Source: an uncultured Candidatus Peribacteria bacterium
GTDB taxonomy: Bacteria; Patescibacteriota; Gracilibacteria; Absconditabacterales; Absconditicoccaceae
Direction: 5' to 3'
Assembly (NCBI GenBank): GCA_964418415.1
Contig: CAYQLB010000003.1
Span: forward strand, 12,618-76,617
Length of the DNA stretch: 64,000 nt
Part shown: positions 10,602 through 59,877 of the stretch, one piece after another
How the letters are laid out: every line of letters begins with the position of its first letter
Numbering within the stretch: the stretch's first letter is position 1
Notes under the pieces: generated by a model
Told to the model about the DNA's origin: nothing
The model's database searches: none
Seen by the model: only the letters and a program-made list of their open reading frames with translations
Made by a program: the position numbers and the translations under genes

Positions 10602-10622
10602 TTTTATTCTTTATATTTTATT

Positions 10623-11573: not shown

Positions 11574-11604
11574 TATCTTTTATCTTTTTCTCCACTAATC
11601 GTCA

Positions 11605-13383: not shown

Positions 13384-13752
13384 TTAATTTTTTGTTAGGA
13401 TTTTTTTGGCTTTAGTTATGAAATTATTGAGTTTAACTGAAAGAATATCTAAATTATGTATAAATTGGGTATATTCATATTCGGATAATAGATTCCTATC
13501 GTGTAACGTTTCTATCCAATGTTTGCTTTCCTGTAAAGATCATCTTGCAGTATAATAGAATTTTATAGAATCTAAATAATGAAACCTTCCAAATCATTCA
13601 GCAATATTTGCTCAAATACTATCAATAGCCCTTACAAATTGACTTCACAGTATCTTTTTGAGATCAAAGTTAAGTCTCTTATAGATATGTCGTGCTTTTT
13701 TTCCTAATGTACGAGCGATACTATAAATTTCCAGATCAGCGATTCATTTCAT
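13384..13752 (-). CDS. four-helix-bundle protein (TIGR02436 / 23S rRNA IVS protein family, Avd-like)
   Basis: MKGIADLEIYSIARTL..SQFVRAIDSIGANIAEGFGRFHY..YTARGSLQESKHWIETL matches the family signature (SxxSNIAEG, ARGSxxE). Five in-frame TGA. Confidence 0.75.
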
Positions 13753-14172
13753 TCTACAATTCATTACACGAAGTAAATTACAATTCATTACATCCGCGTC
13801 AGCGGATACATTACATATCCAATTTCGATGTCAGTATAATGTTTTCCTTGACAGTGTCAAATCATTTTTGACAAAATCAATCATATTTTTGACAAGCATA
13901 GAGAATGTAGTTCTCCATATAACAAAAATCTCTTGATTTTCTAAAATAATTCATTAAAATTGATTTTGTTGATGAGAAAGAACTCAAAAAAACGATTTGC
14001 TTGTCATGTACGATTGATGTCGTAATCGGTGAATCGATAGAGGAATTTGCTCGTAATGCATTGTAATGATTCCTTCGGAATGTAATGATTAGTAATGTTC
14101 ATTACGCCGTAGGCACATTACGCTGCAAGCACATTACCGTAAATTAGTTTTATACTATTATAATAAAATATC

Positions 14173-15371: not shown

Positions 15372-16682
15372 TTATACTTCGAGACTAAATTCACCTATTT
15401 TTGTTTCATCAATAGTGATAATAATGGATGCTTTTCCTGCTTGTTGTGCAAGAATAGCGATATCCATTTTACCGTTATTGATGATCTTTATATTAGAGAT
15501 GTCCGGTTTAAAAGTATCATTTGTTGAAAGTACCGTGAATGCAAATGGTAGTAGTCCTGAATATTTTTCTCATGTTTTTTTATCAGTGACTTCTATAATT
15601 AAAGAAGCCATTTCGCCGAATTTTAGTGGTGAATTAGTGACTAAATGGATAATGAGATTATTTTGTGTGAGAAAATGTTGAGCGATATCACTGAGGTCTT
15701 CCAAATTAAGTATAAGATCTTTATTGATAGATGTCTGGGGTAATATAATCGGTGTAGTTGGTAAAGTTGGTGTTGTTGGTAAAGTTGGTGTGGTTGGTAG
15801 AGTTGGTGTAGTTGGTAGAGTTGGTGTAGTTGGTAGGGTTGGTGTGGTTGGTTGAATTGGTGTAGTTGGTAGGGTTGGTGTGGTTGGTAGGTTTGGTTTA
15901 GTTGATTGAGTTGATGTAGTTCCTGTATTTTGACTACCTGTATTAGTTATTGGATGTATAGTATCTTCATCATCTTCATCAGTAGAGGTGTTTTTATTGT
16001 TATAAATATAGCATTTCACCTGTGCTGTGGTAAGGTCATCTCGACGATCAGACATTTTTCCTCTACCTACCCAAGCCATATCTCTGACAATGATTTTTTT
16101 CATAGATTTGTCGTAGTGAAGAACTTTGCCTACATGTCCGTATACTCAAAATCTACCTCAAGCATCATAGACAATCAATGCTCATTGAACTGGAGTTGTA
16201 CCTATTTTATATCAGGTTTCAGCAGCATTTTTACATCGATCTACAGCATTCCCTCACCATGTTCTTTGTTGGGTATTGTCATCGATAAATGGAAAAAATT
16301 CAGGAGAAATTCTCGCTGCTCCGTAGGTACAATATCATTTGGTGAATGTATTTTCTATATCCATACTCATATCCCATATAGAGATAATATTTCCTTGTTT
16401 GAGTGAGGTGCCTGGGTTTTTCATAGCTTCCACTAATGCTTGTGATACTTCACTACTATTGTTTCTATAGAGTTCTTCACTATATCCGGTAAGATTAGCA
16501 AAAAGTCGAGATCAAGAGATTAAGGTTAATAGTACGACCCCCATAAGTTCACCAACATGTATCAGGTGATGATGGAAATATTGATGGATATGAAAAATCT
16601 TATGCACATGTCTGTGTATGTGTTTTTTGATATGATTATGTATTCTGTGGTGAAGAGCTACGTGCTTCTTTATTTTTTTCAT
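15372..16682 (-). CDS. CHAP-domain peptidoglycan hydrolase with His-rich N-terminus and PT-repeat linker
   Basis: ATG at 16682, TAA at 15372-15374. CHAP Cys box FTKGYCTYGAARI and His box GVYGHVGKVL. Eight TPTLPT repeats. The C-terminal ~110 aa is an unknown domain. Confidence 0.85.
15751..15895 (-). repeat. 8 x 18-bp in-frame tandem repeat encoding (TPTLPT)n
   Basis: ggtgtagttggtaRRgtt units read directly. They translate on the minus strand to PTTPTL repeats. Confidence 0.9.
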
Positions 16683-16808
16683 GGCACGATAAAGGCTAAA
16701 GCGAGTAAACGTTCAAACGCATAAATGATGCAATATTTGTGTATACAGTATCATTTAGTCGCTCTATCGTTTAGTCCTTAAGTAATTATAGTCACAGAAG
16801 TCAGTTTT

Positions 16809-18274: not shown

Positions 18275-21200
18275 TTATTTTTTGTTGCTGTTATAAATAA
18301 ACTCTTTTACATCATCTAAACTGCTGAAATATCTTTCACTAGTGAATGTATAAGATGAATATCTACCATTAATATCCTTGAAGAAATAGAAAACCTTTTT
18401 ATTCGGTGCAGTGAATGGTGATGTTTGCCATATTCCATCGATGCGCGCATTTTTCCATCGAGCTAAGATAGGTTTAGCATTCGCATATTGTGATCCTGCA
18501 GGATTATTGATATCGATGATATATTTTAATGTATCCAAGGTAGGGAAATATTTAGGCACTACGAAATTCGTCGAAGTGAACCGTTGTGTTGCGCTATCAT
18601 AGGTGATAGTGTATCTTTTACCATTAGGCGCGGTATAGACACCATTATTGATTCGATCCATAATATCTATTCCTTCTTCGCCGAATTCATCGCTTTCATA
18701 ATATTCGTCAGCGAGATCATAGAGGTATTTCAATGCTTGCCATTCTGTATCATCTTCATCGTCGATATCATCCATTTTCTCTTCGAGCATAAGCATAAGG
18801 GTATTGAAGAATTCTTCTTCTTTGTCTCCTGCATAGAGATCTCTTAATGTTTCGAAGAGATAGACAACAATAAGTTTCTCAGTGTTTGAAAGATCAGTAT
18901 CGATATCGTCATAATCATCATCTACATCATCATCTTCTTCTTTGGTGGTAACTTTGAAAGTATCTGACTTACTATCGATAGTCAGCGTGCTTTCCACGGA
19001 ATCATCATATTCATCGCTTGAGATAAGCTCTATTTTTACTGTCCATCCATTCTGTACATATCACGTAGTTCCTACAGCATTTCCGCTGATGTAGAGCATT
19101 CCTCTATTAATGATTGCAAGTACTTGTGTTCCTGTAGAAAGACCACTGATAGTAATAGTATTAGACATATACGTTTCATCAAGGTCAGCATCATCGATAT
19201 CATTGAATGAAAATGTATTTGGTGTTGTATCCAATATTCCGCTATAGATAAATGATGATGTTGTGGAATATCATGAGTTTCCAAGATTATCTGTCGCTGT
19301 GACATACCGGTAATATACTCAATTGCTGAGAGTAAGGTTAGGTATGGTAGCTTGAGTAGTTGTTGTTGTAGATCACGATCGTCTGATAATAGTGAATCCT
19401 GTAGTATCTGATACATAATATCTATATCAAGAAATTCCCACCGCATCACCAACACCTGATCGGCTGAGAACAACATTTCCACTTACACTAGCTCAACTGA
19501 GTGGACTGCTAAGTGTAGGAGAGATAACCGTAGTGTCTAGATATACAGAGAGAGATGGAAGAGTTACCGTATCTCCAGAAGTATTCTCTAGAGAAAGCTG
19601 TACGGTTTTAAGTCCATCATTTCCCGTAAGTTGTGGATTAACAATAATATGTCAGGAGATAAGTCCTCCAGTAATACTATTTACTATATCAGATCATGTG
19701 ACTAGATATTTGTATGGTTGATTAGCTCGAAGATCTATTGAAGCATATGCTTTGACATATCGGTATGGCGTAACGTAATAACGATTTGTTCCTGTCAGTA
19801 CTGCTTGTCCTGAAAGTGGTGTGGTGATCATAAACGGTAAGATTTGGCTCATACCTGTGTTTCCTGCACGATCTGTGATAATAACATATCGGGTATAATC
19901 CAAAGCATTATTCATAGTATGTATAGTATATCCTGTATTTGTTGTTGTGATAGTGTGTTGATAACTTCAGGTTACATACAAAGTATACCCAGAAATTGCT
20001 GTTTCATCGAAGCCTGTCCATGAAAACGCAATATTGTTAGTTCCGGTGATATTGAGTCCGCTCGTAGGATAATTTGCCGTAACTGATGGATTCGTCATAT
20101 CTATAGTAAAGATCATCCCCGTAGAATTATCAGCAAGATCGTAGACAGTAAATATATAGGTTCATTCTGAACTCACTATTTCCCCATCAGTAAAGTTTCC
20201 ACTATAATAGGAAATATTCATTCCACTAACTATAGCTCCAGAAATATACAAATCATTAAAATTGATAGTAATTCATGTGTTGTAGTAACCTCCACTGATG
20301 ACATTACCGGATATTAATGACCCTAATGTAGTGCCGGTAAATACAGGTTTAATTTTATCTATAGTAAAGGTTATTCCTGTGGTATTTCCTTCATTATCTT
20401 CCAAAACGAAAGTATAGGATCCATCTCAAGTAATGAGGGCATTATTAGTATATGGAGTACTGTTTAATAGAGCTCATGAAATATTAAGTCAGGTGAACGC
20501 TATCCTGATTCCGGTATTATAATATCCACCATTAGTAATAATAGTTCCTGATTGTGTTGTTCCTGTAAAGTATAATCATGGTGTTCAAAATGAGAAGAGT
20601 TTAAGTGTTCCATTGGTAGAGAAAATACATTCAAGAGATGTATTTAATATACATCAAGAATCTATTGTATTTGGTGACCATGTGTTTCCGTCGATTGATT
20701 TTAATATACTAAGATATTGTCCTATAGTTCATGATAAGACTTGATAATATATCGTTCCTGTTCCTTCATTCATAGTAAGATAGGTTGATCCAGAAATTAC
20801 CTCTATAGTATCAAAAAATGTTGTAATCAATTGTGCTGATCATACATCTCATGTTGTTGCTAATTTGATTCCTGTAGTTATTTTTGTCGGTATATATACT
20901 GTACCATCTCGGTTAGCTCCAGAAATAGTAAATGAAGTACTTCAGTGTATTTCAAAATTTGTTGCTAAACGTAGATGATCAAAATAGATAGGGAATGTTC
21001 ATCCTATAGATAAAATGTTTCATGTTAATTTTGCAGAATTTAATCCTTCAATTCGTATATCATTATTTTGTGTGTAAGTGTCATAAGTAGTATATTGAAA
21101 AGATCAGTAGGCATTAGATTCAATAATGCCATTATCTCATGAAAAATAAATTATTCTATTTCACGTGGAATTTTGCATTAATATATTCCATCATCAAATT

Positions 21201-22909
21201 CAATAAACGATAGAATTCATAATGTTGTTATTATTGCTATTATCCAAGAATATTCATTGACCGCCGTTTCATGATAATATGCTTCAAGAGATAATATTTG
21301 CACTTGATCATGTAAAGACTATTCCTTCATTATAATTGCTGTTTATGACAGAATTTATGATTTGGGTATTGTTTGAGGTGTCTAATGTTATTCAATTATC
21401 TTCATTACTTGATAAATTACATGAATCAATAATAGTTCAAGAAGAAAAAGAAAGTAAAATACCATTACCATTAAAACCAATAAGTCCATTATTATTGAAG
21501 GTTGAATACATGATATTATTACTTGTTCATGTTTCAATCACTATTCAGACTCTACTGTTATATGTACTAGTAGAATGAGTGATGGTATTGTAATCACTAT
21601 ATGACATATATACTCCATGTCCCATATTTCCTGAAATTATTGCTCAGCTTATCGTATTATCAGATGAATTGGAAGTGAATACGATTCCATTTTTGGAATT
21701 GTTACTGATGTTTATAGATGTGAAGATATTGTCCATTGAATCATCAAGATATAATCATCCTTCATTGCTGTTTGAGACGATAATCATTCATGTATTGTTG
21801 TTTGAGTTATAGAAATGTACTCATGCATAATAATTTCCGTAGACATAGATTCACATCAAATTATTACTTGAAGAATTGTTGAAATATACTCACATAGCAT
21901 TTGCACTATTATTGGCAGTGATATCAATAAATGTATTATTGTTGGAATTATACGTAGATACATTGTGGTCTGTGTTGTTATAGGAATCTACATTAGTGAA
22001 TGAACTATTACTTATTCATTGTAAGGATACCCCTTTTCATATGTTTGATGAAATATCTATATCAAGAAAATTGTTATAGGATCATGTTAATAGTGATACT
22101 CCATGGGTATTATTGTTGCTATTTATACCACTAAATACGCTGTAGTTTATATTGTTAAATGCAATTCCATATACACTATTTTGATATGTTTGTACATTAT
22201 TCATGAAAATGTTGCTTACATTAAGACCCACTATTCCATTTGAATTATTGTGGAGTTGTGTATTTATAATATCCATATAAGATACTCCAGAAATGAGAAT
22301 GCCATATGCATTATTTGATCATGTCGTATTTTTATACGCTTGGAAATCTCTTACGGTTGTATTCATGCCGCCATCGAGGTAGATTCAGAAATGTCATTCG
22401 TTGTTCCCGTCTACTCTTATTTTTTCAATAATGATATGTTTGTTTCCATTACCTTTGATGATGGCTGGATTGGTCGTATTACCTGAAAGTGTGACTATTC
22501 CCGAACTAATCAATGCTACACAATCGTTGAGTGTAATCGGAGCTGTTACATCATAAATGTCAGAATCTATCACATAGATAGTGTTTGCTACGGTTGAAGT
22601 GGGAATCGTTCATGTGAATTCTACTGTCATTCATCCGTTCAAGCATGAACCAGAATTGTATCCTGTCCAATGCTGTGTATATGCGGTGTTTTCATCACCG
22701 CTTCCATAGAGCGCTCGGATGATATCATCATCAGTCGGTGCATTATCCCAAAATAATCAGCTGAGATAATTGGAATTATCTCGTGTGATAGTTCCTACCG
22801 TCCGTGTTGCTGCATTCGCGAAGAATGCATAGATTCACAAGAAAATCCCCATAGCGATAAAGAGGATGCTCATGAATTTTGAAACGGTTGATTGTTGTGT
22901 GTGTTCCAT
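18275..22909 (-). CDS. giant surface protein (1544 aa): signal peptide, Asn-rich parallel beta-helix repeats, Fn3/Ig-like modules, acidic tract, C-terminal domain
   Basis: ATG at 22909 (MEHTQQSTVSKFMSILFIAMGIFLGIYAFFANA). There are ~20 repeats of the type NNxxNGIxxxxSxNNxI (pectate-lyase/NosD-like). Fn3 signatures are VVLSWSGVGDAVGISGYRYYV and GVYYWYVTATDNLGNSG. An acidic run EEDDDVDDDYDDIDTD is present. Track ORFs 18275, 19694, 22082 and 22835 share the frame. I checked 18995-19500 codon by codon. Confidence 0.8.
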
Positions 22910-22949
22910 GATATGGTTGAAATGATAAATGATAATTTGGGCTACGCCC

Positions 22950-23083
22950 GTAATGAGACTTTGTCGGTAATGTGTCCTATCGGACGTAATGAATTGTAAT
23001 AGACCTTGAGTCGTAATTGGTAATTGATTACGCGACCAAAGGGAGCAAATTACGCGAAGCTCATTACATCGAAGATTTGTTAC
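22950..23083. repeat. GTAATG...CATTAC mini-hairpin array in a divergent promoter region
   Basis: GTAAT(G/A/T) at 22950, 22967, 22986, 22996, 23013 and 23020. Orientation then switches to (C/A)ATTAC at 23027, 23048 and 23062. The spacers are small palindromes (gac ttt gtc, gtcc tatc ggac). Confidence 0.8.
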
Positions 23084-23309
23084 ACGAACGCAGTGAGTCA
23101 TATACTATTATATACGCAGAATTGAAAATTGCGAAATGTGTCCTATTCTGATATATATTCAACTTGCTTTTTTTATAAAAAGTTATGAAATATGTTAACA
23201 TACAAAACCATTGAAACGTCGAGGGAAAAACGTATTTACAATACAATACCATGTATGATGTGAAATACATAGTATAAAATATTTTTTTAGCATATGTAGT
23301 GATATTATT

Positions 23310-25676
23310 ATGGCTGATCAAGTACCGCAGATGCCGCAAACGCCGATGCAGCAAGATCCTCAAATCCCTGTACAAGCGCAACAACAAATCCCTGGGGCAC
23401 CACTCCAGCAGGCTCCTGTCGAACAAGCTCCTCTTCGTCCTCAACAAACGGCTAATGTCACGAAGCCTACATCCAAGATTTCCATGAAGGGAATATTGAT
23501 TTGATGTGGTCTTATCTTTATGTTCGTGGTCTGAGGATTGTCACTTGTGTTCTATAATCTTATGAACAATCCGACGCAGCTTTCGAGCGTAGGATTAGAT
23601 CCAAATACTACAAAGACCTTATTACAGACATTTTCTGTGTTATTTTTTGGTCTTTTGACCTTCCTTGGTATAGGACTCCTCATTGTCAATCTCTATAGAG
23701 TGATTACCGTAAAAAATAAATCGAAAATCTGATATATTTTTGGCGCTTTTCTTGGATTTATCGTATTTATTTTGGCTATCGTTCTCTGATCGAGAATCAT
23801 TACCCTCGTGAGAAATTTTTCTGTAGAAAATATTCTGGATAGTGATAAACTTATCATGCCGTATATTCAGCTCAAAGATAAGCCGACCTATACACGTGGT
23901 GATGTGGCACTGAAACTGATCGCTCCGGCAACGATGCGATATACACTCAATAGCAATTATTTTAATTCTCAAATAGTTCCTCCGCTCTGACAAGTAAATT
24001 TCCAGACCATAGTCTTGGATTGTGGTAATGGTCAAAAACTTAACCTAAATTTCACGACCTTCCAATTTGAAGGGTCATGTATCTACTTCAAAAAATGAGA
24101 ATATCCACTAAATCTCGAGACGAGCTATATCAATATTCCGACTTCGGAGAAAATAGAAAAAACCTTTCCAGCAGGATCTATTGTTTTCGATTCTGAGATC
24201 AATGTCGGACCGACAAAAGGCAAACTTACCTTCAATGATGCTAATACGGAGATGATTCTTGGAAAAACACCGAGCAAAGTAATGTTCGATGCAAGTGCAG
24301 TATTCAAGGATCTAAGTATGACAGATTATAAAATTATCTGGGATTTTAATGGTGATGGTGAGGCAGACAAACAAAATAATGCTTCTACAACCTATGTCTA
24401 CAATGAAGCAAAACTCTACAACGTATATGTAAGATTCCCTACGCTCAATAATTATATTTATACATTCCCTGTCAGAGTAGAACAATCTGATGTCCCTGTA
24501 TGTGAAGTGGTTGTTACTCAGGCGGAAGGAAAAAATTATACAGTCACAACCAATTTCTTCGACAAAACCGTAAATATCACTAATTATCAATTCGATATTC
24601 TTAATAGAAATAATAAAGATAAAGTTATCGAAACGATAAGAAATAATAATGGTAGTTTTACCTATATTTTCCAAAACGCTTGAACGTATGCTATCCAAAA
24701 CACTTTCCTTACAGAAGATGATAAGCAAGGGCAATGTGAAAGTGATGATATCCAAATAGGAGTGACAGATTTTCAAGTAAACTATGATAGCTATTTCAAA
24801 TCACCGAATTCTCCACAATTCAAAAAAGTAGGTAATGAAGGTATAGTATTTTGGAGTGGAGAAGAATTGATACTTACGGAGATCCCTACGGTCATAAAAT
24901 TACAAATCAATCAAATTATTCCAAATTCTACGACTGCAGTCAAAAAAGTGCAGATTGATGGAAAGCAAGTACTTTCTACTGATCCAAATAGTTTCGAATT
25001 CACTATTTCTGATAACGCAGACCATGAAGCAAAACTGCTTATAGAGGATACGCCGAGCGGTGCCAAGACAGAGATACTTATTCCTATCAAGATACATAGA
25101 CCAGATATTATCGGAAAGGTGATTGTTACTCCAGGGACCGTAGGTACAGATCCATTCAATGTCACTTTTGATGTTTCTACGACGGTTCTCAATACTACAG
25201 GAGATGAAATAGTATCCTTTACTTGGGACTTTTGAGATGGTAGTCCTGTGAAGAAAAATTTTTCTGAATCTATCATCACGCATACCTACAGATACGATAT
25301 AAACAACGAGAATGGGACATTCCATCCGCTTATCACCATAAAAACGAAGAAGGGTCGTGAAGTGACCATTACCACGGAAAATGATATTATCGTCAAAAGA
25401 GCTAATCAGACATTAAATATCTTTATAGATTCTCATCCTGCACAAGTAGCGAATATTGGCGATAGAGTAGGATTCTCCTTAGAATTCAACGGCTTGCCTA
25501 CAGAAATAGCACGAGATTTTTGAGATGGTAAAACACTGACATGCAATACTAGGCAAGAATGTGGTACAACGAATCATGTCTATGTATCGCCAGGAACATA
25601 CCTTATCAGAGCATCAGTTTCTTATGAAAATCAACCGACAATTGACGGCACAATTACCTTAAAAGTAAATCCATAA
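23310..25676 (+). CDS. membrane protein with Gln/Pro-rich N-terminus, 3 TM helices and PKD-type repeats (788 aa)
   Basis: ATG 23310 to TAA 25674. Six track ORFs share one frame and are joined by TGA. PKD signatures are IIWDFNGDGEAD, FTWDFGDGSPV and IAWDFGDGKTL..NHVYVSPGTY (the last W is CGA). Confidence 0.85.
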
Positions 25677-32104: not shown

Positions 32105-32464
32105 CTAATATCCATCTTTCTTTTTAGATGTTTTTATACTTGCTACAAGTATTTTCAATAATTCTTCTCATAAATGATATAATGATATGTATTCGTTTTT
32201 GTTGATATATTCTGTTTCTAAAAGAATATCTAATCGATATAAGGTTTCATTAGCTTCTTTGAGTGCAATACTCATTTTATTTATAAAGTCAGCTCTGGAT
32301 TGTCCAAATTCAGCTTCACGAACTAAAGCTCAAATACTTGTTCATGATCTTATCAATTGTTTGCTTAGAATAAATTCTTGTTTTTTCTGAGAAAGATGCT
32401 GATAAAGTCTTACGATTTTAATGCTGAATTTATAACTCTTTGTTTTAAGAATATTCTCAGTCAT
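32105..32464 (-). CDS. four-helix-bundle protein (TIGR02436 / Avd-like), second copy
   Basis: SKQLIRSGTSIGALVREAEFGQSRADFINKMSIALKEANETLY[CGA]LDIL matches the family signature, ending in the ETxYWLxLL box. Confidence 0.8.
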
Positions 32465-35633: not shown

Positions 35634-38276
35634 TTAGTTGATAATCGCGAAGTTGACAATGAGATACCCAGTTCCAAGTACAAGTATTCATAACAACATA
35701 TAAAATAAGCTATTTTTGATGTTTTTGATTTGAGCTGGATCATCTGGCTTGGTAAGTAATTTGACGGTTTGGATAATGATAATTACCAAAATAACCAATG
35801 ATGCTATTCCCAAAGCATAGTTGATGATTTGGTAGAGAATAGGGATATTCTTATCAGCCAATATTCCCGATCAAATCTCTCAGAGATTTGTAATACCATT
35901 TGGATTAATTACATCGCTCTGTTTTCCATATATCGCTTGGACTATTTGTTTTGCTCCGATGATAATAAACATAGAGATAACATTCCGTCCGATCAATGTT
36001 CATGCTTTCTTTTGAGCATCACTATCGCTTCCAAAAAGGAAGGTGATGACGCGACTTACGAGAATGACGAACATCGCACCCAAGACAAGGTAGATAGCAA
36101 ATTTGATAAACGGATAGATAATTCTATCGTAGAGTCAGGTTGCTATATTGGTACCTACAATTTCTCCCGTGGTGAGCATATCGTAGACGTTTTGTCCAAT
36201 AAACTTAGCACTCATGATGACAATGATACCTACGATACCAAATACTATATATCTTGTTCCTTCTTTGACTGCATTTTCATCGCTCGAGAACATGAGTTTA
36301 TAAAATCCGAGGATAGCAGAAAGGATACCTATGATGATGATAAGGGGAACAAGGACGTTCATGATTTTGTTGAAAAGAAAGTTTTGGAGTCCTTGAGTTC
36401 CTATTGCGCCTTCCGCAGCTTCGAGGTTTTGATTAACTCCTTCTATACTCCTACTGAGTGCAAGATCAAATCTCCTTGCTTCTACAATTTCAAAGGTTCC
36501 CGATCGTGTATTATTAGTACCAGTTACATCAGTAATGCCGACACTTCCCGGATTGATACTACATACCATAATTTTGGTACCGAGTGCTTGTGTGAAGATA
36601 GGTTTGATCCTGATGTTTACACCGACTTTTGTTCAAGCATTCAGAATGAATTGTTCAAGGATATTAGAACTATATACATTAATATCTCCTCCTTGAGCTT
36701 TCCATACACACGTTAAGAATCCTGCTGCGAGATTGGTTCCATTTACTGGTGTATCTCCTTTATTCTTAAACAGTATACTAAGTTCTGGGCTCGATCCTTG
36801 AGCAATCAGATATCCACTACGTACAGGAGATTCATTGATAGCGATATCTACACCAGCAACCAATCCTCCGATATCTGTACAACCAGGGTATTTGTAGGTT
36901 TGTCGATTACCATTGAGTATACCTCCACTACAGGATAAAATGGTAGAAAAATCATTACAGCTTTTTGGATATTCTACTCCAGTAGAAGAATAGGCTCATA
37001 TCTGCGTTCCTTCCGCTAATGGTGCTCATCGAGGAAGTACACATCCACCACAACTTGGATAGAGTCCAGCTTGTGAAGTAACGATTCCTCAGGTAGTGTA
37101 TCGTGAACTATTTGTACACGTGAGTTTTATTTTGACACTTTCACATCACAAACTTGCTGTAGGAGTATTGGAAGTATATCCATAGATAAATTGCATATGA
37201 GGGACATATGACCCTCGGATATTAGGACATGATCCCGAAGCAACATTTTGACATCCAGTATATAGGGCACCAATATTTCCTGATCGTGTGCCATTGGTAC
37301 ATTGGAGTAAGTGAGAAAAAGCATTACATGATTCGTTGAGTGCTGCGAAAGCATGTGGTTGTGTATATTTAGTTACATAGGTTCCGTGAGGCAAGGTACC
37401 CGAACCAGAGATGATATTTGTACATGGAGTCTGTCCTACGGGAGTACATCCACTATAGAGGGAAAGTTGATTTCCTCAACTTCGCTGTCCATTGATACAA
37501 GTAAGTGGAGTAAGTAGTCCAGTACATATCCCTGATGGGGCAGTATATGCAGGGAGCTGATATCCATGAGCAGTCATTTGGTTGGTCCATATATTCAAGC
37601 ATCAAGCATATGTTCCTGTTTGGATACATCAACTAACCAGACCAGCTTGTCCAGCGGTACCATTTCCTGATCGCGTGCTATTAGTACAGGTGAGTGTTTT
37701 TTTTAATGTGTTGCAAGTTTGTCATGGTCATGGAGTATTAGCTGTATATCCTATGATCGTTTCTCCATGATCTTTGATCGTATTAGTCCAGACATCCAGA
37801 CATTGCATCCGTGCTTGATCTGTACATTTTCGGTATTGGTAGAGTGATGGAGTAATACCTCACGTAAAAACACCATTCAAACACTGTAAGTTTTGACTGA
37901 GTTGTTGACAGGTCTGGGTATAGGTATTCGTAAGTGATTTGTACAAGATTTTATATTCCAGATGGTTTGCTCCTGTTGGTGTTGTACAATTTGCCCATGT
38001 ATGGGGAATACATGATGGGTATTTGTACGTATTGATATTTGCTATGCTTCAGCTGATGCAAGTAACAAGCGCTTTGGATCAGGTACAGCTCTGGGTATAG
38101 GTAGCTTCAGCTATTGAATAGCCAGTCTTAGATTGTCCATCAGCAAGCATAGAAGGATTCCGTCCCATAGGCAGAATGCAGTTCTGTGCATACGAAATGG
38201 CAGCTAATGAGAAAATCATGATCAAGATGGCTCCGATCCATTTACTTACCGTGATAGAAAGTGTTCTTGTATTCAT
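35634..38276 (-). CDS. fusion protein: signal peptide + 7 Cys-rich ~55-aa repeats + three tandem T4SS-pilin-like TM hairpins
   Basis: I checked codon by codon that the frame is open down to TAA 35634. The start is either ATG 38276 (MNTRTLSITVSKWIGAILIMIFSLAAISYAQ) or ATG 38324. 38276 avoids overlapping the upstream gene's stop at 38281. Repeat and hairpin motifs are given in the finding for this gene. Confidence 0.75.
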
Positions 38277-38280
38277 CGTA

Positions 38281-39309
38281 TTATTGATGTGATAAAACAG
38301 TTTTTTTAGCAAAGAACGATCCAATCGCCTTACCGAGGAGAAGAAGTTCTCTCGCGATAGGGAGATGAGGAAGATGTTTCAGCTGTATCGCCATAATAAG
38401 ATATCTCGTACTTATGAGACCAAGTCATACATAATATGTCCATACGGTGAAATCAGGTTTGAGAAGATAAGAGAGTAAGATAATTATTCCTATCCCAAGT
38501 ATATATTCTATAATGAGTAGAGTATTGTTGTGAATATCTATAATGCGACTATAGACTTCTTTTTCTTTGGCGATATCACCGGATAGCGTATATTCGTCTC
38601 CATTGAAGAAGAGACGACCGATTGTTTTTCCCAAGTACGTAATGAGTCAAGTGATGTATCATCGAAGCTCTTCAGGATTTTTAGTAAATAATATATTGAG
38701 ACGTTGTTTTATGGTTATAGTGAAAACATCAATATCGGACATAAGTGAAGCAACTCTTAAAATAATGATAATGAGAATCGTAGTACAGATCATAATATTA
38801 CCTGACATACATCCTATCATAAATATGATTCGTCGAAGGAGTGACTCTTTGATCCATCGATTTGGGTTCTCGAAACTATGTATGTTATACCAGAGATGAA
38901 TATTATATATGGGGAGATATTTGAGAAGAATATCTTTTTTGTTACCTTCGATAGTGTATTCTTCGGTAGTTCATCCCGTTCATTTCATAAGACTGATATC
39001 TGAAAGAATACTCACTACACTGATAATGAGCAATGTAATGAGGATAAATATACTTACAGTATACGTTACACTCAAGAGTTTAGTAACGAAGAGATAATTT
39101 AATATGCCTGCAGTAACTGTAATAAGACCAAAGAGTAAGGTAATATATCCAAATTTGATGTAACCACGAATAAATGCTTTATCGCTATCAGAAATGTCTC
39201 GATTGTTCTTTTGGAGTATATTTTGCACCAACGGAGAAAAAAATAACGCTGCTGCAAGCGAAAGCTGTGTTTTGGTGTTTGTATCAAATGCTTTCGTTTC
39301 TTCGACCAT
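38281..39309 (-). CDS. polytopic membrane protein in the T4SS-like module (function unknown)
   Basis: 342 aa. Track ORFs 38425 and 38980 share one frame. Hydrophobic helices include GYITLLFGLITVTAGILNYLF, VSIFILITLLIISVVSIL, GNIMICTTILIIIILRV and ILGIGIIILLSYLL. Stop TAA 38281. Confidence 0.65.
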
Positions 39310-39451
39310 CTAAATAAATGAATAGTTAATAATTAAAAGTTAATAATATTGGTAGTATCTCTTGATGAACTGTTGTAAAACATGGTAGAGAATAGTGATA
39401 CAGGTCTTTCATTTTTTATTTTTCATTATTCATTATTAATTTTTCGTTAGG

Positions 39452-41500
39452 TTATTGTACATCCGTTGTAATGAATGCTCTTTCTTCCGGAGATGCTAAT
39501 ATTTTTACTCCGACATGTTGACTTCCTGCAAAGATAAGACCTTCTCCAATTCCTGATGCAACGAGTCTTCTCTGTTCTGCTTCCGACAATCAAAGAAGTT
39601 CATTCAATGCTTTGATGGATGTTGTGGATTGTTTCAAAAGTATCTGTAATGCACAGTTAGAGATAATAGGTTTCCCGTATTTGCTTCTTACGAAATCTTC
39701 GATATCTTGAGATATTACTGTAATACCAAGTCCGTATTTTCTCGCTCTTTTCGTAAGTCCAAAAAGGAATTCTGCAGAGGTGTCGTTTTGGAACATGATC
39801 CATGCTTCATCGCAAGCGAGCATTCTTTTTTTCTTGTGTGATCTGACTTTAGTCCAGATCCGATTCAGGACGTTGAACATCGCAGGAGTCTTTAACGCAT
39901 CTTCCAAATCTCTAATACTAATGACGGTAAGCTTGTTGTTGATGTCGATATTTGTGTAGTTATTAAATACTTTTCCGAAAGTTCCATTTACATATTTACT
40001 CAATCTCAATGCTAATCTATCGCCACCATCCATACCTTCAAGTACATTCATGAGATCGCCCATGATCGGTGGTTGTTTGCCTTCATAAGTGTCATTATCC
40101 AAAGAGAATCATTTGAGTGAATAGGTACTCTGCAATGCTTTATCGAGTAATGCTTCTTCTTCTGGTGTACATCATCAGATAAGAATTTGAATCATTCATA
40201 TGAGACTCATGATATGAGATCTGAGAAGATCTCCCTTACCATATTCTACATCTTCGATTTTTGGTGGAATATCAAACGGATTGAGATATTGCTGTGAATT
40301 AGTTGCGATGTTTACATAGGTACCGCCTACTTTTTCGCAAAGTGCTTTATATTCATTTTCTGGATCGATAATGATGACGTCGATACCATTGATAAGATAT
40401 CTTAAAGTTTCTAATTTTACCGTAAATGATTTTCCAGCTCCGGAGGTAGCCAAAATAACACTATTCATGTTCGGTAACTTTTGATTGTATCTATCGAAGA
40501 TAACTAATCATCCGGTATGGAGATTTACCCCATAGAGTATTCCTGTTTCTTCGACCATATCGTTGGAGATAAAAGGGAATCCACCAGACAGTGATGAGGT
40601 TACCGAGCTTCTACTAATTCATAATTCATCTGAACAGATAGGCAATCCAGAAACGAATCATTCATCCATTCTTTGGATAGCGTTCTTGATTCTGATTCCG
40701 TATCCTGATATTTTTTGTTCCATTTTTTTTCAAGTTTCTTTTAGCTTATCTACATCATCATCATAGATATTGATATAGAAAGAATTTTCGAAATATCTCT
40801 CTTCTCTGGTAGTGAGTTTTTCTCTAATCATCTCTACGTCTCTGTACTGTTGTTCTATCTCAGTATCGAGCGTAATTCCTTTTTGCATAGCATCCTTCAC
40901 TTCCGCTTTCAATTGTGTTGCTCTGTTTTTGAGCATAGATTGAATCGCTGCATCATCCTCAGGATAGATAAACCAACTCATATCTCGCTTTGCGTGAAAT
41001 CCAAAAATATCTCTTGTCCGTAATGCATCGATATAGGATGGATAACTTTGAGCGTAATATGTTTTCCCCATGAGTCAGGAAACGTTATAATGCGTAGGAG
41101 TGAATTCTCGATAGGAAGGTGCAATATGTGTTTTGTAGTCACTCACGACAGTAGTATATTCTTTCTCTACATCAGCGATAAATTGTCTCAATTTGCTAGT
41201 AAGAAGCTTATCGTTGTATTCTTCATCAGGAAGTTCTAAGATATATTTTATCTGATCCCTCAATTCTTTGTCTTTGATTTCTCCATTTTCTGGCAAAACA
41301 TCTTTCGCTTTGTTTCCCAAGAGCGTTCATGATGTAGGAGTTCATTTTTTTTCAAAGAGACTAGGAAAGATTCCTGCGAGTAATTTATCAAAAAATCACA
41401 TCTTTTGATGTTTTGGTGTTTGAAATTCAGGAAATCCACCATCAGCAACATATCCGCTGTAGTTCGTATCATAGACGACATTCGAGATTATTTCGTTCAT
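39452..41500 (-). CDS. virB4: VirB4/TrbE-family type IV secretion ATPase
   Basis: 682 aa. Walker A NSVILATSGAGKSFTVK, IIIDPENEY, Walker B-like RMLACDEAWIMF, ITVISQDIEDF. Four track ORFs share one frame and are joined by TGA. TAA 39452. Confidence 0.88.
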
Positions 41501-41678: not shown

Positions 41679-42188
41679 ATGAAAACAAAAGAAGAAATAC
41701 ATGTGTACCTACAAAAATTCGAAGCCAACAGGAAACGATTGATGCGGGCATTCCTTACTGTGATAACTATCGCGATCGGTTGTGGAGTACTCTTATGCTT
41801 TGCTCCGAATTGGATAGTGATATCCTTGTGTGTATGTTATGCCACTTTCAGTTTAGGTTTCGGGATATTTCCTGCTATAGAACATCTGAATATGGAGTGG
41901 GAAGCAACGAAAAATAGAAATACTCGTTTGAATAAACGGCATGCGTTGGAGTATTTCGAAAAGCAGTATCGCAATAAGGAATACGATTTTTCCTCGTTTC
42001 AGTCCATACCTTCGGAACTGCAGGATATCTCACACCTTCTGATCAACAATCCTAAAAAATCATTCCAGGAGATGGTTGAGATAATCACCACATCCATGGA
42101 AGAGGATGAAATATATGCTACCATCTGTACAGAGGCAAAAGAGCGGACCTTATGGCAATATTTCAGAAGTGGTAAGTGGATCAGATAA
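41679..42188 (+). CDS. small membrane protein, TGA-free, higher G+C
   Basis: 169 aa intact in both codes, with a TAA stop. It has a two-helix hydrophobic core, its own promoter and a hairpin-rich 3' region. Confidence 0.6.
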   Translation: MKTKEEIHVYLQKFEANRKRLMRAFLTVITIAIGCGVLLCFAPNWIVISLCVCYATFSLGFGIFPAIEHLNMEWEATKNRNTRLNKRHALEYFEKQYRNKEYDFSSFQSIPSELQDISHLLINNPKKSFQEMVEIITTSMEEDEIYATICTEAKERTLWQYFRSGKWIR

Positions 42189-42245
42189 CATCCCTCTTAT
42201 CAATCTTCGATCCTTCGGTATTCCGGAGGATTTTTTTAAACTATA

Positions 42246-42275
42246 TTGACTTTATAAAGTAAATATATATAAAAG
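42246..42275 (+). promoter_or_regulatory. conserved promoter cassette TTGACTTTATAAAGTAAATATATATAAAAG
   Basis: Nearly identical to 43904-43933 and related to 49693-49722. It lies ~25 nt upstream of ATG 42298. Confidence 0.5.
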
Positions 42276-42297
42276 TAAAAATTAAAAAAAAAGAAAA

Positions 42298-42648
42298 ATG
42301 AAAAAATTTGTAGTTTTATGTATTGTAGTAATGATGATTGCTATTGTTGGATGTGTAAACAATACATCCAAGTCAGCTGTTCAAAATGAGCAAACCGTAA
42401 AGACGGCCGATGGTATAAAAAATTACGGTAATGGTGTGTATTATTTCGACTATACCAAAAGTAATTTTGGAGAACAATTATCTTTATTTATCGGACAACA
42501 TCCAGAATTACGTATGGTGTCTTTTGCTCCTTATAACGCTGGGTCAATTGCACTTCCAAGCGGTGGAACAGATGGTTACTTTGTAAAATTTGAAAAAACA
42601 ACCTCTTGTCCTTGTGACACTATCAAAAAATGAAAAAACAATATCTAA
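42298..42648 (+). CDS. lipoprotein (lipobox IVGC)
   Basis: MKKFVVLCIVVMMIAIVGC. No internal TGA. The standard-code stop TGA 42631 becomes Gly, which adds 5 codons up to TAA 42646. Confidence 0.6.
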
Positions 42649-42732: not shown

Positions 42733-43848
42733 TTATACAATACTTTGAGCCATCCGATCGATTTTGAATCCTTTTTTTGCAAGGTTCAATTTGGTGAAAA
42801 CGATATCCATAAATTGTCTGACATTCGGTCATTTCAAAATAATATTGTATCTATATTTTCCAAACATTTTATAAATCAACGGAGGAGTGGAGTAAATTTC
42901 TATATCTTTCAACTGATATTTTTCTTTCAAATAGAGAAGATCTTTATGTAAGGTATCGACCTTCGTATACAAACTTTCTTCAATCTCATTCTTATATAAA
43001 ATTACACATAATTCCCCAAAGGGCGGATATCCATTCGTTTTTCTGAAGATATTATCTTCTTCGTAAAATTTTTCTTTACTCATTCTGCACGCATTACGAA
43101 TACTATAGTGATCGGGGTTAAACGATTGTACAATAAAACTTCCCGTTTGGTGTTTTATAAATGTTTCATACAGAAAATAGAAATTTCTTTCTGCTGATGT
43201 GTAATCGGGAATATTTAATCACAAATCTGCATTCAAAAAAATAACAAGGTCGAAATCATATCATTGTATAGGTGTGGCGAGTAATGATGTTCAAATAATT
43301 ATAGGGTTGCTCTGTAAAGTCTTAAAGTCCAAGGTCTGTAAGGTCGAATCTTCTGACTTTATGGGCTTTTGACATGATAGACTTTCGACTAATCTTTTGA
43401 TTTTATTAGGAGAATTTACAGTTTCAGACTCGATAATCAGCGAGTCTTTTCCGTATTCATTTTTCAAAAATTCAGCGACCTTTTGTGTTCAAAGTCAAAA
43501 TTCTTTGATTTTTTTTCCATGACAAGCAGGGCAGTTCATTGGTACTGAATATTGCGTTTTACAAATATGACAGAGTCCGATAGTCTCTCAGGATGGTATT
43601 TTATGATAACTAATACTGACATCGCAGTTCTTGCATTTTGGGATATGTCCGCAGTCGTGGCAGATGATTCATCAGGAGTAGCCTTTCTTGTTGACAAGGA
43701 TTCAGATTTTTTTTCCTTGCTTGAGATATTTTTCTATTCATTGTAAGGCTAATTGGGAAAAGTGCGGAGTGAGCTCCTTGGTCATATTTACCAGGAAGAT
43801 GGACTTCTTGGTACCTTGTATGTCGTGATCAAAACGTTCGTAATTCAT
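42733..43848 (-). CDS. priA: PriA-like protein, C-terminal half only (Zn-finger insert, helicase C-lobe, CTD); no Walker A/DEAH lobe
   Basis: ICHDCGHIPKCKNCDVSISYH..CHICKTQYSVPMNCPACHG (Cys-rich region), GTQKVAEFL, IIIGTSLLATPIQGYDFDLVIFLNADLGLNIPDY, GYPPF, MFGKYRYNIILKG. Upstream there is an in-frame TAA at 43912-43914 and no room for the N-terminal ~400 aa. Confidence 0.7.
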
Positions 43849-57201: not shown

Positions 57202-59877
57202 TTATTTTAGTTCGTCTTTGATTTTGTCTAAAATTTGTAATGCTTGCAGAGGAGTGATATTGTTGAGATCGTAGGTGTCGAGCAGTGATTTCAATTTCTC
57301 GTATTTTATTCAATATTCGGGATTTGGTGAAAGGTCGAAGGTCGAAGGTAGAAGATTCTTATTTTTGTTGCCTTGTCCCTTGTCCCTTGTCCCTTTTTCC
57401 TGTTCAAGTTCATTTAAATGCCCTTTTGCTCTTTCTACTATTGTAGCAGGAATACCCGCTAATTTAGCGACATCGAGACCATAGCTTTTATTGGCTCATC
57501 ATTTCACTATTTTTTTCATGAAGATAACTTCTTTATCGGTTTCATAGACACTTACGGAATAGTTTTTCACACCCGGGTGTGTTTCTTCCAACTGAATCAA
57601 CTCATGATAATGAGTTGCTATCAATGTTTTCGCTTTGATAGTGATGACGAGATATTCTAAGATTGCTTTGGTCAATGCGAGACCATCATAGGTCGCTGTT
57701 CCACGACCTAATTCGTCGAAAATAATGAAACTATTTTTCGTCGCATTATTCAAAATATTTGCAACTTCAATCATTTCTGTCATGAAGGTAGATTGATTTT
57801 TTGCAATATTATCTCCGCTTCCTATACGCGCAAATAATGCATCCATCAGCGGAAGCTGACATTCCTTCGCCGGTACGAATAATCCACAATGCGCCATCAA
57901 GACGATCAATGCATTCTGTCTGAGATAGGTCGATTTACCTCACATATTCGGTCCTGTAATTATATGGAGAAATCAGTTGTCTGTAGTGGTTCATCATGTA
58001 TCATGTATCATATATCATGCATCAAGCTGTAAGTCATTTGGTATAAACTGCTGATCGCGTGGTAAAAATTCTTCGATAACCGGATGTCTTCCTTCGATGA
58101 TATGTAGTGTATCGTTTTTCACAAACAGTGGTTTGATATATTTCTTTTCCTGTGCTAATATCGCTTGCGAAACGAAAAGATCCAATTGTGAAATCTTCTC
58201 AGCAAATTCGTGCAATTGTTTCATATTATCGTGTATCTTTGTTTTTGCTTGCTCGAGGAATTCGTATTCCATCTTACTCAAAATATCTTTTGCTTCCAAT
58301 ATCTTTCATTCCAAATTCTCAAGATACGGAGAAGAATATCTCTGACCTCACTTCAGCGTATTCCTACGAACTATTTCAAACTTTCCATCTCATTCTCCAT
58401 TCTCAATTTTAAATTTTCAATTAATATTTTTTTCGAAATTTTCTATGTCTTTATTCGTTACTTCCAAAAAATATCCTTGATTTAGTACATACTTTACTTT
58501 GACGGTCGGTATGCCTGCGGCTTGTGCCAATTCTTGCTGGTATTGTAAAAGTAGTTCATCACTATGATAAGCAATTTTTCTGAGTTCATCTATTTTTTCA
58601 TGGTATCCATCACGGATATAGTCGATATCGTTTTTGTATTCTTCATCGTTTTTCAAAAGCTGTTCCAAATAATTATACAGATGCTGGAGATAATTATTAC
58701 TTACTTCAGTCAATCATAATATTTTCAATTCATCGAGCAAAAATGTATTTTCGAAGAAAATTCTCAGGGTTGATCTAAGTTTGATAAAGGTATTTGGTAA
58801 TAGTTTTTTGTATAATATCGTTGTTACGAGTTTTGGTATATCGCGTACATTACATAGAAAATGGTGAATGTTTTTGCTTTTTTCTTGGTCAGAAAAATAT
58901 TTCTCTATCATATCCAATCTTCGCTGTAACTGCTCAAGATTTTTGATAGGATTCGTAAGTGTATGGTGGAGAAGTCTAGAACCACCAGCTGTTTGTGTAG
59001 TATTCAAAATATGGAAGAGACTATATTTTTCACTTCATTCATAACTTGAAGATAATAATTCCAGATTTTTAATCGTGACTTCATCCAGGATGAGATACGT
59101 ATCCTGTGAATGAAAGGAGATTTTCGTAATATTGGTCAGTGAAGATTTTTGGGTATGGTTCAGATAGGAAAATAATAGGGCTATCGTTGCTAATCTACCG
59201 TTCTCGAGCGCTTTTCCATAGCTTGAAATCTGTTGAACTCCCGTTATTCATGAGATAAATTTTTCTGGATCTGGTGGAATATCCCATATCGAAATCAATG
59301 CTTTCATAGCTTGTTGTACGGGTACGGAGATACTTTCTTTTTCAGGAAAATCGATGTCAAAGACTAATTCAACAGGTTTAACCGCGATGATAAATTTCTG
59401 TAGTTCTTGGATATCTGAAAAGCTTTTGGTTCGGTATTCACCGACACTAAAATCTCATCGAGCAAGATGATAACTATTTCCGTTGGTATACGGGATAAAG
59501 GTCATTGCCATCGTATAAGTATACGATTTTTTTGCTTCTTGGATATAGGTTCATGGAGTGATGATACGTACGACTTCTCTTTCCACTATTTTTCCGGGGA
59601 TAGGTTCGCTCGTCTGTTCGGCGATAGCGACTTTATAGCCATTATTGATTAATTTCGTAATATATTTGTCGGCACTATGGTAGGGAATGCCAGCCATGGG
59701 GACGGAATTCTCTGAATTTTTATTCTTGCTCGTGAGGACAATATCGAGCACTTTACTGCAGATTTTTGCGTCTTCAAAGAAGGTTTCATAAAAATCTCCC
59801 ATACGAAAAAATAAGATACAATCTTCATGTTCTTTTTTGATATCAAGATACTGGATAATCGCTGGAGTAAATGCCAA
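57202..59877 (-). CDS. mutS: DNA mismatch repair protein MutS
   Basis: [49 protein letters not shown] (TGA 57940-57942 = Gly), [35 protein letters not shown]. Five track ORFs share one frame. I checked the tail codon by codon to TAA 57202. Confidence 0.95.

Follow-up and report, generated by a model that had tools for sequence, protein, structure and literature searches.

A putative non-conjugative type IV secretion core with a fused triple pilin in an SR1 bacterium that reads TGA as glycine

We analysed a 64-kb stretch of contig CAYQLB010000003.1 (hereafter the window; all coordinates are in its numbering) and focused on three consecutive minus-strand genes, g35, g34 and g33. They encode a VirB4-family ATPase, a polytopic membrane protein and a protein predicted to carry three VirB2-like pilin hairpins in a single polypeptide. 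The reading that we favour, with modest confidence and including the mechanism proposed below, is that the trio represents the chromosomal, vertically inherited and non-conjugative core of a Patescibacteria-type type IV secretion system (T4SS) in the form it takes in SR1 (Absconditabacteria). The general system, a relaxase-less Patescibacteria T4SS with VirB2-like pilins, is already published. What appears to be undescribed is the covalent fusion of three pilin domains, the plastic ectodomain attached to them and the SR1-specific membrane partner g34.

The trio comes into view only with the right genetic code. Under translation table 11, the region between 35.6 and 41.5 kb contains only short open reading frames (ORFs), and the longest ORF of the entire window is 307 aa. 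If TGA is read as a sense codon, 93% of the window becomes coding and ORFs extend up to 2147 aa. Genes of at least 150 aa contain 369 in-frame TGA codons, some of them at invariant Walker A glycines (examples are found in the genes at 61612..63195, 57202..59802 and 14173..15261). TGA occupies universally conserved Gly positions in the Walker A motifs of PilB (GPTGS-G-KT) and MutS (GPNM-G-GKS), as well as sites in RecA, EF-G and release factor 1 (RF1). It follows from these positions that the organism uses code 25, in which TGA encodes Gly, and all genes discussed here are code 25 translations. RF1 itself is encoded in the window (prfA). Pseudogenisation was considered as a cause of the missing long table 11 ORFs and rejected; the cause is the recoding of TGA. 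The nearest VirB4 relatives, up to 92% identical, reside on genome contigs of metagenome-assembled genomes labelled SR1, Absconditabacterales or 'Gracilibacteria'. The source organism is an uncultured SR1 bacterium that reads TGA as Gly. An earlier note on this DNA had reported three co-directional minus-strand genes, and their lengths and coordinates are reproduced exactly under code 25, although the note did not state that the gene calls depend on this code. Many copies in public databases carry Trp at TGA sites (code 4) or are broken into fragments. The practical warning is that the trio is invisible or mistranslated unless code 25 is applied.

Judged by its sequence matches, g35 appears to be a VirB4 of the monoderm CD1110/MPF-FATA type. 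It matches Pfam P-loop_TraG (1.1e-26), DUF87 and AAA_10, and it scores 346 bits with NCBIfam NF045971 (conju_CD1110), a family of monoderm conjugal ATPases, above the curated cut-off of 325. Scores are lower for the NCBIfam models of Mycoplasma integrative and conjugative elements (ICEs), of F-type systems and of VirB4/CagE, and very low for archaeal CedB. Among PDB sequences, g35 matches the VirB4 C-terminal domain (4ag5, 1.5e-48) and TrwK (1.7e-5). Both the Walker A and the Walker B motif are intact, and there is no transmembrane (TM) segment. The N-terminal ~117 aa are SR1-specific and include a conserved amphipathic GFFDKLL motif. Relatives of this VirB4 were located at 511 or more places in genome contigs, of which the best 80, nearly all labelled Patescibacteria, form the basis of the synteny counts given below. 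Homologues with 40-92% identity come from records labelled SR1, Gracilibacteria, Saccharibacteria, Doudnabacteria, Berkelbacteria and others, again nearly all Patescibacteria.

The most unusual member of the trio is g33, whose sequence suggests three VirB2-like hairpins in one polypeptide, preceded by a signal peptide and a two-part ectodomain (Table 1). All three hairpins are detected with a hidden Markov model (HMM) that was built in this analysis, the E-values in Table 1 being domain E-values. With Pfam T4SS_pilin (PF18895), g33 scores 36.1 bits against a cut-off of 26.6, the best stretch being aa 813-876. Hairpin 3 is the most canonical copy, and over aa 806-878 it also resembles the NCBIfam Mbov_0395 pilin-like family, at 32.7 bits under the cut-off of 40. 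The hairpins are mutually homologous according to hhalign, with probabilities of 95% (hairpins 1 and 2), 92% (hairpins 2 and 3) and 63% (the remaining pair). Some homologues of g33 match PF04956 (TrbC/VirB2) as well. In the AlphaFold2 (AF2) model the hairpin helices are 30-40 residues long, a length typical of VirB2 pilins and not of ordinary TM bundles with helices of ~20 residues. The earlier description of an 880-aa protein ending in pilin-like hairpins is borne out; that these are three tandem VirB2-like domains had gone unrecognised.

As in the VirB2/TrbC/TraA pilins (PF04956, PF18895), each unit is a helix-loop-helix hairpin with a short charged loop, and the protein starts with an N-terminal signal peptide. 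The differences lie in size and number. Single-hairpin pilins in related loci and among database matches are 121-169 aa long, and classical VirB2 and TraA pilins are smaller still, whereas g33 homologues combine three tandem hairpins (six TM helices) with an ectodomain of up to ~700 aa. The single-subunit pilin architecture is thus absent in g33, where the hairpins are fused to one another and to the ectodomain. VirB2/TrbC pilins polymerise with lipid into a pilus; for g33, polymerisation is a proposal. A profile of its C-terminal module gave no match among PDB sequences, including VirB2, TraA and TrwI/VirB6. We also tried to map the single-hairpin pilins of sister lineages one-to-one onto the three hairpins, but no consistent pattern emerged, most of them matching hairpin 3 best. 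Elsewhere in the window, the N-terminal TM hairpin of a 788-aa membrane protein with PKD domains gave a weak, non-significant match to the hairpin HMM (domain E 0.008).

The first part of the ectodomain consists of 4-Cys repeats that AF2 models as small β modules with a predicted local distance difference test (pLDDT) score of 70-85. The Cys columns of the repeats are nearly invariant across 40 homologues, and the repeats have no Pfam match. For the second part, the top match in a whole-protein Foldseek search was a 116-residue CARDB domain (3idu_A, E 3.6e-5, TM-score 0.66 on target). We place this match at aa 470-600 because this is the sole compact β sandwich of such size in the model.

Six TM helices in a single chain also invite another explanation, which is the main rival to ours. 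Here g33 would be a static VirB6-like pore or platform, an 'extended VirB6' derived from three hairpins, with the ectodomain as a fixed adhesin, g34 as an accessory protein and no pilus. VirB6 proteins are comparable in size to the six-TM part of g33, and we take the class Gracilibacteria to include SR1, following the GTDB placement. According to the portions of a recent survey used here, VirB6 homologues are absent in Gracilibacteria (PMC12102498), so that some other protein must take the VirB6 role. The six TM helices of g33 span ~270 aa and resemble in number those of the VirB6-like CedA, which has six or seven TM domains (PMC9905601). Moreover, Beltran et al. found the N-terminal regions of VirB6 and CedA to be homologous to VirB2 and CedA1 pilins (PMC9905601), and extended VirB6 proteins with large hydrophilic domains do exist (PMC12857230). 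Pili are normally absent from monoderm T4SSs (PMC10633639 and the same portions of PMC12102498). The strong conservation of the hairpins (79-84% identity) resembles that of core machinery, and the part of the Vampirococcus report considered here describes transmission electron microscopy without bridges between parasite and host (PMC8080830). On the other hand, no VirB6 signal was obtained for the whole protein with Pfam (TrbL/VirB6) or NCBIfam, nor did the PDB profile search point to TrwI/VirB6. The hairpins match pilin families instead, namely PF18895 and in some homologues PF04956, the predicted helices have the length expected of pilins, and g34 is already a polytopic candidate in the VirB6 position. 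We consider the static pore possible, if rather doubtful.

How g33 varies among relatives is informative. All SR1 loci examined encode the triple hairpin as a single polypeptide, and it recurs in more than 100 database clusters; where these carry a name from their source, none is functional except for one evident mislabel ('Na+/H+ antiporter MnhB subunit'). In the commonest and also shortest form, of ~310-345 aa, the three hairpins are separated from the signal peptide by no more than a short linker. Ahead of hairpin 1, where a conserved NLEAAEGA motif directly precedes it, the ectodomain is inserted, with 49-701 aa and 0-35 Cys in genomes whose VirB4 proteins are 59-92% identical. Even among genomes with VirB4 85-92% identical, g33 homologues measure 312, ~503, 572, 880-902 or 957 aa. 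The ectodomain-less form of ~310 aa, commonest in related genomes, was not recognised in the earlier note.

Among full-length homologues, the hairpins are 79-84% identical compared with ~50% for the ectodomain, and dN is ~three times higher in the ectodomain (0.29-0.40) than in the hairpins (0.11-0.14). Since dS is saturated (>1.4), only relative dN values are usable and omega is only indicative; where dS could be estimated, omega was ~0.05-0.27, well below 1 in every region, which points to purifying selection. The same saturation made a dN/dS test for diversifying selection in the ectodomain unusable. A variable ectodomain on a conserved core would be the pattern expected of an exposed surface module that determines specificity or recognises a host, and both the signal peptide and the Cys-rich composition fit an exposed location.

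The third component, g34, appears from our searches to be an SR1-restricted family without known homologues. The family comprises 93 clusters at 90% identity and 238 representatives at 50%. Its listed members do not exceed 377 aa (shorter ones are fragments) and none has a Pfam domain on record; the few relatives that carry a name from their source are all just 'hypothetical protein'. The protein itself matched nothing in Pfam or NCBIfam, and a g34 profile found no match among PDB sequences. Foldseek comparison of the AF2 model with PDB returned nothing below E = 5. In hhalign comparisons with 16 other gene families from the 80 related loci, including virB4 neighbours, probabilities stayed below 1%. 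With all five approaches negative, we rejected the identification of g34 as VirB6, VirB3, TrbL, PrgH or CedA. An assignment to a known transporter was likewise rejected on the negative Pfam, NCBIfam, profile and Foldseek results. We also rejected a threefold repetition within g34 and kinship of g34 with the pilin hairpins (hhalign probabilities <5%). The earlier note had proposed a comparison with VirB6, TrbL and PrgH families, which gave no match, and the match to an unrelated transporter that would have refuted its reading did not turn up either.

The AF2 model of g34 (pLDDT 68, predicted TM-score 0.52) is all-helical, with three TM hairpins (41-108, 151-190 and 263-308) and additional soluble helices. 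Two loop motifs, KNPEE (210-214) and HLPHLP (312-317), are invariant. By position and topology, g34 is a candidate for the membrane platform that is equivalent to VirB6/VirB3.

The arrangement is not uniform. In one SR1 subclade (loci L030, L031, L036, L039, L041 and L042), g34 is absent beside virB4 and the triple pilin directly follows virB4. In L039 as well as in L045, a separate single-hairpin pilin and a ~5-TM protein of 205-281 aa are encoded ~five genes upstream, and L036 and L041 have an extra single-hairpin pilin close by. The membrane partner may accordingly be interchangeable. We considered a VirB3-VirB4 fusion in this subclade and rejected it, as the apparent N-terminal TM segments turned out to be artefacts of the ORF start or internal hydrophobic stretches. 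Three more distant loci that use the standard code (L054, L061 and L066; VirB4 only 41-44% identical; of the labels, one is Gracilibacteria and one Altimarinota) have a polytopic protein of 505-539 aa ahead of virB4 and two tandem single-hairpin pilin genes 4-6 genes downstream. Their polytopic family proved unrelated to g34 by hhalign.

We next turn to the genomic setting. The intergenic gaps are 142 nt (g35-g34) and 4 nt (g34-g33). In 27 of the 28 loci that carry g34, it comes directly after virB4 and the order virB4, g34, triple pilin is kept. Triple-hairpin genes are present in 36 loci, and in 33 of these the gene occupies position +1 or +2 relative to virB4. The longer order priA-like, virB4, g34, g33, secG, the gene for a solute-binding protein (SBP), M50, prfA recurs in ~15 SR1 genomes. 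Since gene order is kept in ~28 to 36 independent genomes, the trio is more than a chance association. Distant Patescibacteria, with VirB4 40-45% identical, have different neighbours and separate ~130-150-aa single-hairpin pilin genes, often in tandem.

Downstream of the trio lie secG, an SBP_bac_5 protein and an M50 peptidase; together with prfA, the PriA-like gene, dus, recA, fusA and mutS they make up a housekeeping setting. The G+C content is 0.30-0.40 all along the window, with no sharp island boundary. A Pfam scan covered 51 window ORFs (secG and all those that reach 116 aa, mutS and g58 excepted; other short ORFs, some of them nested within longer genes, were left out). It detected no relaxase, type IV coupling protein (T4CP/VirD4), VirB8/9/10, VirB11, VirB1-type lytic transglycosylase, integrase or transposase. 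VirB3/PrgI and TrsD were likewise absent from the scanned proteins, in Pfam and, for the trio together with g36 and g37, also in NCBIfam. The sole T2SSE-family ATPase (527 aa, 61612..63195, plus strand, 20 kb away) is of the PilB/GspE type, presumably serves type IV pilus assembly, stands apart from the trio and is no VirB11. A PF00912 protein at 46972 is a biosynthetic glycosyltransferase and not a lytic enzyme.

These results bear on the possibility that the trio belongs to an ordinary or decaying ICE whose relaxase, T4CP and other mating-pair formation genes lie outside the window or have been lost. Mycoplasmas, which read TGA as Trp, offer a parallel, and their ICEs carry a DDE transposase. 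Their elements contain a similarly small adjacent set in a genome-reduced bacterium, with CDS15 (pilin/VirB3-like), CDS16 (8-TM, VirB6-like) and CDS17 (VirB4), known as Mbov_0395-0397 (PMC12857230). The pilin end of g33 resembles the Mycoplasma ICE pilin-like protein, and g35 exceeds the curated cut-off of a conjugal-transfer ATPase family. Yet both similarities to the Mycoplasma families stay below threshold (g35 with VirB4_plasma, 260 bits against 590; g33 with Mbov_0395, as given above). Gene order differs, and the pilin here is triple and has an ectodomain. The Mycoplasma elements are mobile, conjugating ICEs with a T4CP (CDS5) (PMC12857230), whereas the locus described here is fixed in the chromosome. 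Housekeeping genes flank it on both sides, the same order is kept in ~15 SR1 genomes and the 64 kb lack integrase, transposase, relaxase and T4CP genes. All three genes are intact, and g33 appears to be under purifying selection. Moreover, VirB4 divergence tracks lineage, and the survey tree, in the portions used here, has a single vertically inherited Patescibacteria clade (PMC12102498). The conserved order and the housekeeping flanks argue for a fixed chromosomal feature of the lineage and not an ICE, which we regard as highly improbable.

Much of what the earlier note had claimed survives this scrutiny. Its identification of a VirB4 ATPase (Pfam P-loop_TraG), a multi-TM protein (AF2) and a pilin-ended protein (PF18895) stands, as does the monoderm style, supported for the VirB4 by the CD1110 score. 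The lack of relaxase, VirD4, VirB11, VirB8/9/10 and lytic transglycosylase genes nearby is upheld across the 51 ORFs, and the downstream secG, SBP and M50 protease genes are indeed there. No complete conjugative gene set, which would have made this an ordinary ICE, is adjacent within the 64 kb. With no conjugation genes nearby, a housekeeping setting and synteny across SR1, we agree that the trio is probably not a conjugation system. The word 'minimal' in the earlier note describes the 64 kb and may not hold for the genome, where further parts could be encoded.

We then compared the trio with described systems, starting with those of Patescibacteria. In a Saccharibacterium, Wang et al. (2023) showed epibiotic growth to require a T4SS that contains pilins and has no recognisable relaxase or T4CP (PMC10633639). 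Quinonero-Coronel et al. (2025) surveyed 3,035 genomes; according to the portions used here, the VirB4 proteins of Patescibacteria form a monophyletic clade inside MPF-FATA, 1,135 assemblies have VirB2-like pilins close to virB4, pilin genes occur in arrays of 2-11, and relaxases are nearly absent (PMC12102498). A 2025 FEMS review also highlights these T4SSs (PMC12857230), and SR1 members are epibiotic predators according to the part of the Vampirococcus report cited here (PMC8080830). A role in host interaction or uptake is a published inference at the level of the phylum and coincides with the general interpretation of the earlier note.

The locus described here shares with these systems (Southlakia epibionticum SEML1_0006-0019 and the loci of the survey) an apparently MPF-FATA-related VirB4, a chromosomal location and the absence of relaxase and T4CP genes at the locus. 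Also shared are PF18895 VirB2-like pilins beside virB4, which is unusual for monoderms, and a presumed non-conjugative, host-related function. The differences are substantial. Saccharibacteria loci have at least 10 genes, including TrsD, PrgI/VirB3, VirB6 and cell-wall hydrolases, whereas only three clustered genes are found here. Instead of arrays of 2-11 separate single-hairpin pilins, three pilin domains are fused behind a variable ectodomain that is Cys-rich and CARDB-like, and the polytopic partner is an unrelated SR1-only family. In class Gracilibacteria, according to the same portions of the survey, TrsD and VirB3 homologues exist and are mostly encoded away from virB4 (PMC12102498); the trio may accordingly not be the whole machine. 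With VirB6 reported absent and TrsD and VirB3 mostly unlinked, the membrane components of Gracilibacteria are the least understood. T4CP homologues, too, are reported in the survey from most Patescibacteria genomes, far from virB4 (PMC12102498).

Fused multi-hairpin pilins, pilins with ectodomains and the g34 family find no mention in the portions of PMC12102498 and PMC8080830 used here or, within the literature library searched, in full-text searches for PF18895/T4SS_pilin. The only fusion discussed in those portions of the survey is VirB3-VirB4, of which none was found, and genetic code is not addressed in them.

A second group of systems to be considered is the archaeal Ced/Ted importers (CedB/TedB, CedA/TedA and CedA1/TedC). 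The composition is alike: a chromosomal, relaxase-less set of a VirB4-like ATPase, a polytopic protein with 6-7 TM segments and a two-TM VirB2-like pilin (PMC9905601). By this analogy, the trio would be a domesticated T4SS that imports host or prey DNA, for nucleotides or for recombination, through a VirB4-powered channel of the polytopic protein and the pilin. Candidate phyla radiation bacteria are unable to make nucleotides de novo (PMC10633639). Immediately upstream of virB4, 22 to 26 SR1 loci have the conserved PriA-like gene, and in class ABY1 the T4SS loci adjoin comF, recG and radA. The NCBIfam similarity of g35 to CedB (42 bits) and CedD (25 bits) is weak, however; the CedB cut-off is 700, and the best match is a bacterial monoderm conjugal family, to which g35 is closer than to CedB. 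The Ced/Ted polytopic protein is detectably VirB6-like, whereas g34 resembles neither CedA nor VirB6, and Ced/Ted pilins are single hairpins without an ectodomain. In addition, the part of the Vampirococcus report considered here credits this SR1 bacterium with ComEC, ComEA and type IV pili for DNA uptake (PMC8080830), and the PilB-type ATPase in our window also counts against DNA import by the trio. In Southlakia, the T4SS is essential independently of ComEC, comEC being dispensable (PMC12857230), so the essential role there is not DNA uptake through ComEC. Ced/Ted systems import DNA; we consider such an import function of the trio unlikely.

Returning to the reading that we favour, a non-conjugative T4SS core with a fused pilin, we propose how it might work. 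VirB4 hexamers are known to energise the assembly of the membrane complex and the extraction of VirB2 pilins from the membrane. Membrane-embedded VirB2 has its loop inside and its two termini outside, and these termini point outward once pili are assembled. Co-transcription of the three genes is probable. From what is known of its family, g35 would be an active hexameric ATPase of the VirB4 type on the cytoplasmic side of the membrane, while g34, by position and topology, may form a lineage-specific platform in place of VirB6 and VirB3. The signal peptide and the VirB2 topology suggest that g33 is exported by Sec, leaving the N-terminal ectodomain outside and the three hairpins, or six TM helices, in the membrane. 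VirB4 could then extract the pseudo-trimeric g33 units and, on the g34 platform, polymerise them to a stub or a short pilus. Because the termini joined by the linkers of ~25-30 residues would both be located on the outer face, the geometry of a helical strand could accommodate the fusion. Attached to hairpin 1, the ectodomain would be displayed on the outer surface as an adhesin for host or prey. By analogy with the Saccharibacteria T4SS, the structure may mediate contact-dependent attachment, passage of macromolecules between epibiont and host, or both; we infer a role in host contact or transport.

Several points weigh against this proposal. A six-TM fusion with a ~600-aa head would be an unusual substrate for pilus polymerisation, and full-text literature searches turned up no fused VirB2 pilins. 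The structural models are weak: AF2 confidence is low in the hairpin region of g33 (pLDDT 45-64), and the models were taken from database copies with TGA translated as Trp, amounting to 18 Gly-to-Trp substitutions in g33 and 5 in g34. The role of g34 is assigned by position, without homology to VirB6, VirB3, CedA or any family, and the subclade described above manages without g34 beside virB4. A promoter and terminator scan was uninformative, with counts at or below shuffle expectation. The absence of parasite-host bridges in Vampirococcus micrographs (the same part of PMC8080830) belongs here as well, as does the indication in the survey portions cited that T4CP, TrsD and VirB3 may lie elsewhere in the genome (PMC12102498). 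Sequence alone does not discriminate between a pilus, a VirB6-like pore and Ced/Ted-like import.

Table 1. The trio and the features assigned within its products, in window coordinates.
Feature	Coordinates	Strand	Basis
g35, VirB4-family ATPase, 682 aa	39452..41500	-	Pfam, NCBIfam and PDB sequence matches
g35 Walker A, GAGKS, aa 354-358	40427-40441	-	sequence motif
g35 Walker B, DEAW, aa 564-567	39800-39811	-	sequence motif
g34, polytopic membrane protein, 342 aa	38281..39309	-	AF2 topology; no family match
g33, putative pilin fusion, 880 aa	35634..38276	-	domain analysis
g33 signal peptide, aa 1-30 (...AISYA/QN)	38187..38276	-	read from sequence; hydrophobic aa 8-26; AF2 helix aa 4-29
g33 ectodomain part 1, seven tandem 4-Cys repeats of ~55-60 aa each, aa 33-466	36879..38180	-	Cys spacing, repeat alignment
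g33 ectodomain part 2, CARDB-like Ig-fold β sandwich, aa ~470-600	36477..36869	-	AF2 pLDDT 80-88
g33 VirB2-like hairpin 1, aa 622-699	36180..36413	-	hairpin HMM 1.2e-27; AF2 helices 628-663, 667-701
g33 VirB2-like hairpin 2, aa 707-786	35919..36158	-	hairpin HMM 7.4e-27; AF2 helices 708-748, 754-784
g33 VirB2-like hairpin 3, aa 800-880, plus stop codon	35634..35879	-	hairpin HMM 3.4e-25

The surroundings of the trio merit a brief description. The PriA-like gene conserved upstream of virB4 (42733..43848, minus strand) encodes 371 aa, with zinc-finger motifs of the CxxC kind and a PriA_C match below threshold that corresponds only to the C-terminal half of PriA. It is either a truncated or split priA of this lineage or a distinct PriA-derived protein linked to the T4SS locus. 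Between it and virB4, and divergent from the latter, lie genes for a TM protein of 169 aa and a lipoprotein of 116 aa (41679..42648, plus strand). As neither has a homologue in any of the 80 loci, they appear to be strain-specific insertions at the locus boundary.

Farther away, a block at 2284..12687 (plus strand) encodes two large coiled-coil/TM proteins without Pfam match (582 and 2136 aa) and, behind these, an NlpC/P60 peptidase as well as a D,D-carboxypeptidase of the VanY type; in a predatory epibiont, this block may serve to attack cell walls or to interact with a host. PTTPTL repeats and a CHAP domain occur in a protein encoded at 15372..16754 (minus strand). A 1608-aa β-helix/NosD protein with Ig-like domains (18275..23101, minus strand) and the 788-aa PKD-domain membrane protein mentioned above (23310..25676, plus strand) look like the large surface proteins reported for Vampirococcus. 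Two '23S rRNA-intervening-sequence' four-helix-bundle proteins (PF05635) are encoded at 13384..13899 and 32105..32464 (both minus strand), although the 64 kb contain no rRNA or tRNA genes.

Among T4SSs, that of Patescibacteria was the first shown to be indispensable to its own carrier, and it is the only monoderm type with pilin genes. The SR1 trio is the most reduced arrangement seen here, offering a three-gene core for modelling or reconstitution. Its natural fusion locks three pilin domains at a 1:1:1 ratio. The g33 ectodomain, whose length shifts between close relatives, is an obvious candidate for a host-recognition module, and g34 is a candidate for the 'missing' VirB6-type subunit of Gracilibacteria. 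A bolder picture, which we offer as speculative and rather unlikely, is that of a T4SS surface organelle of SR1, of a kind not seen before, for which VirB4 and a new g34 platform replacing VirB6/VirB3 assemble a fused pseudo-trimeric pilin. The first hairpin of this pilin would bear a modular, disulfide-rich adhesin that resizes rapidly, and the organelle would set which prey cell is docked to and open a route for feeding or transfer. If this were true, one consequence of the fusion would be that tandemly encoded pilins elsewhere in Patescibacteria assemble together in a single heteromeric structure and do not represent alternative variants.

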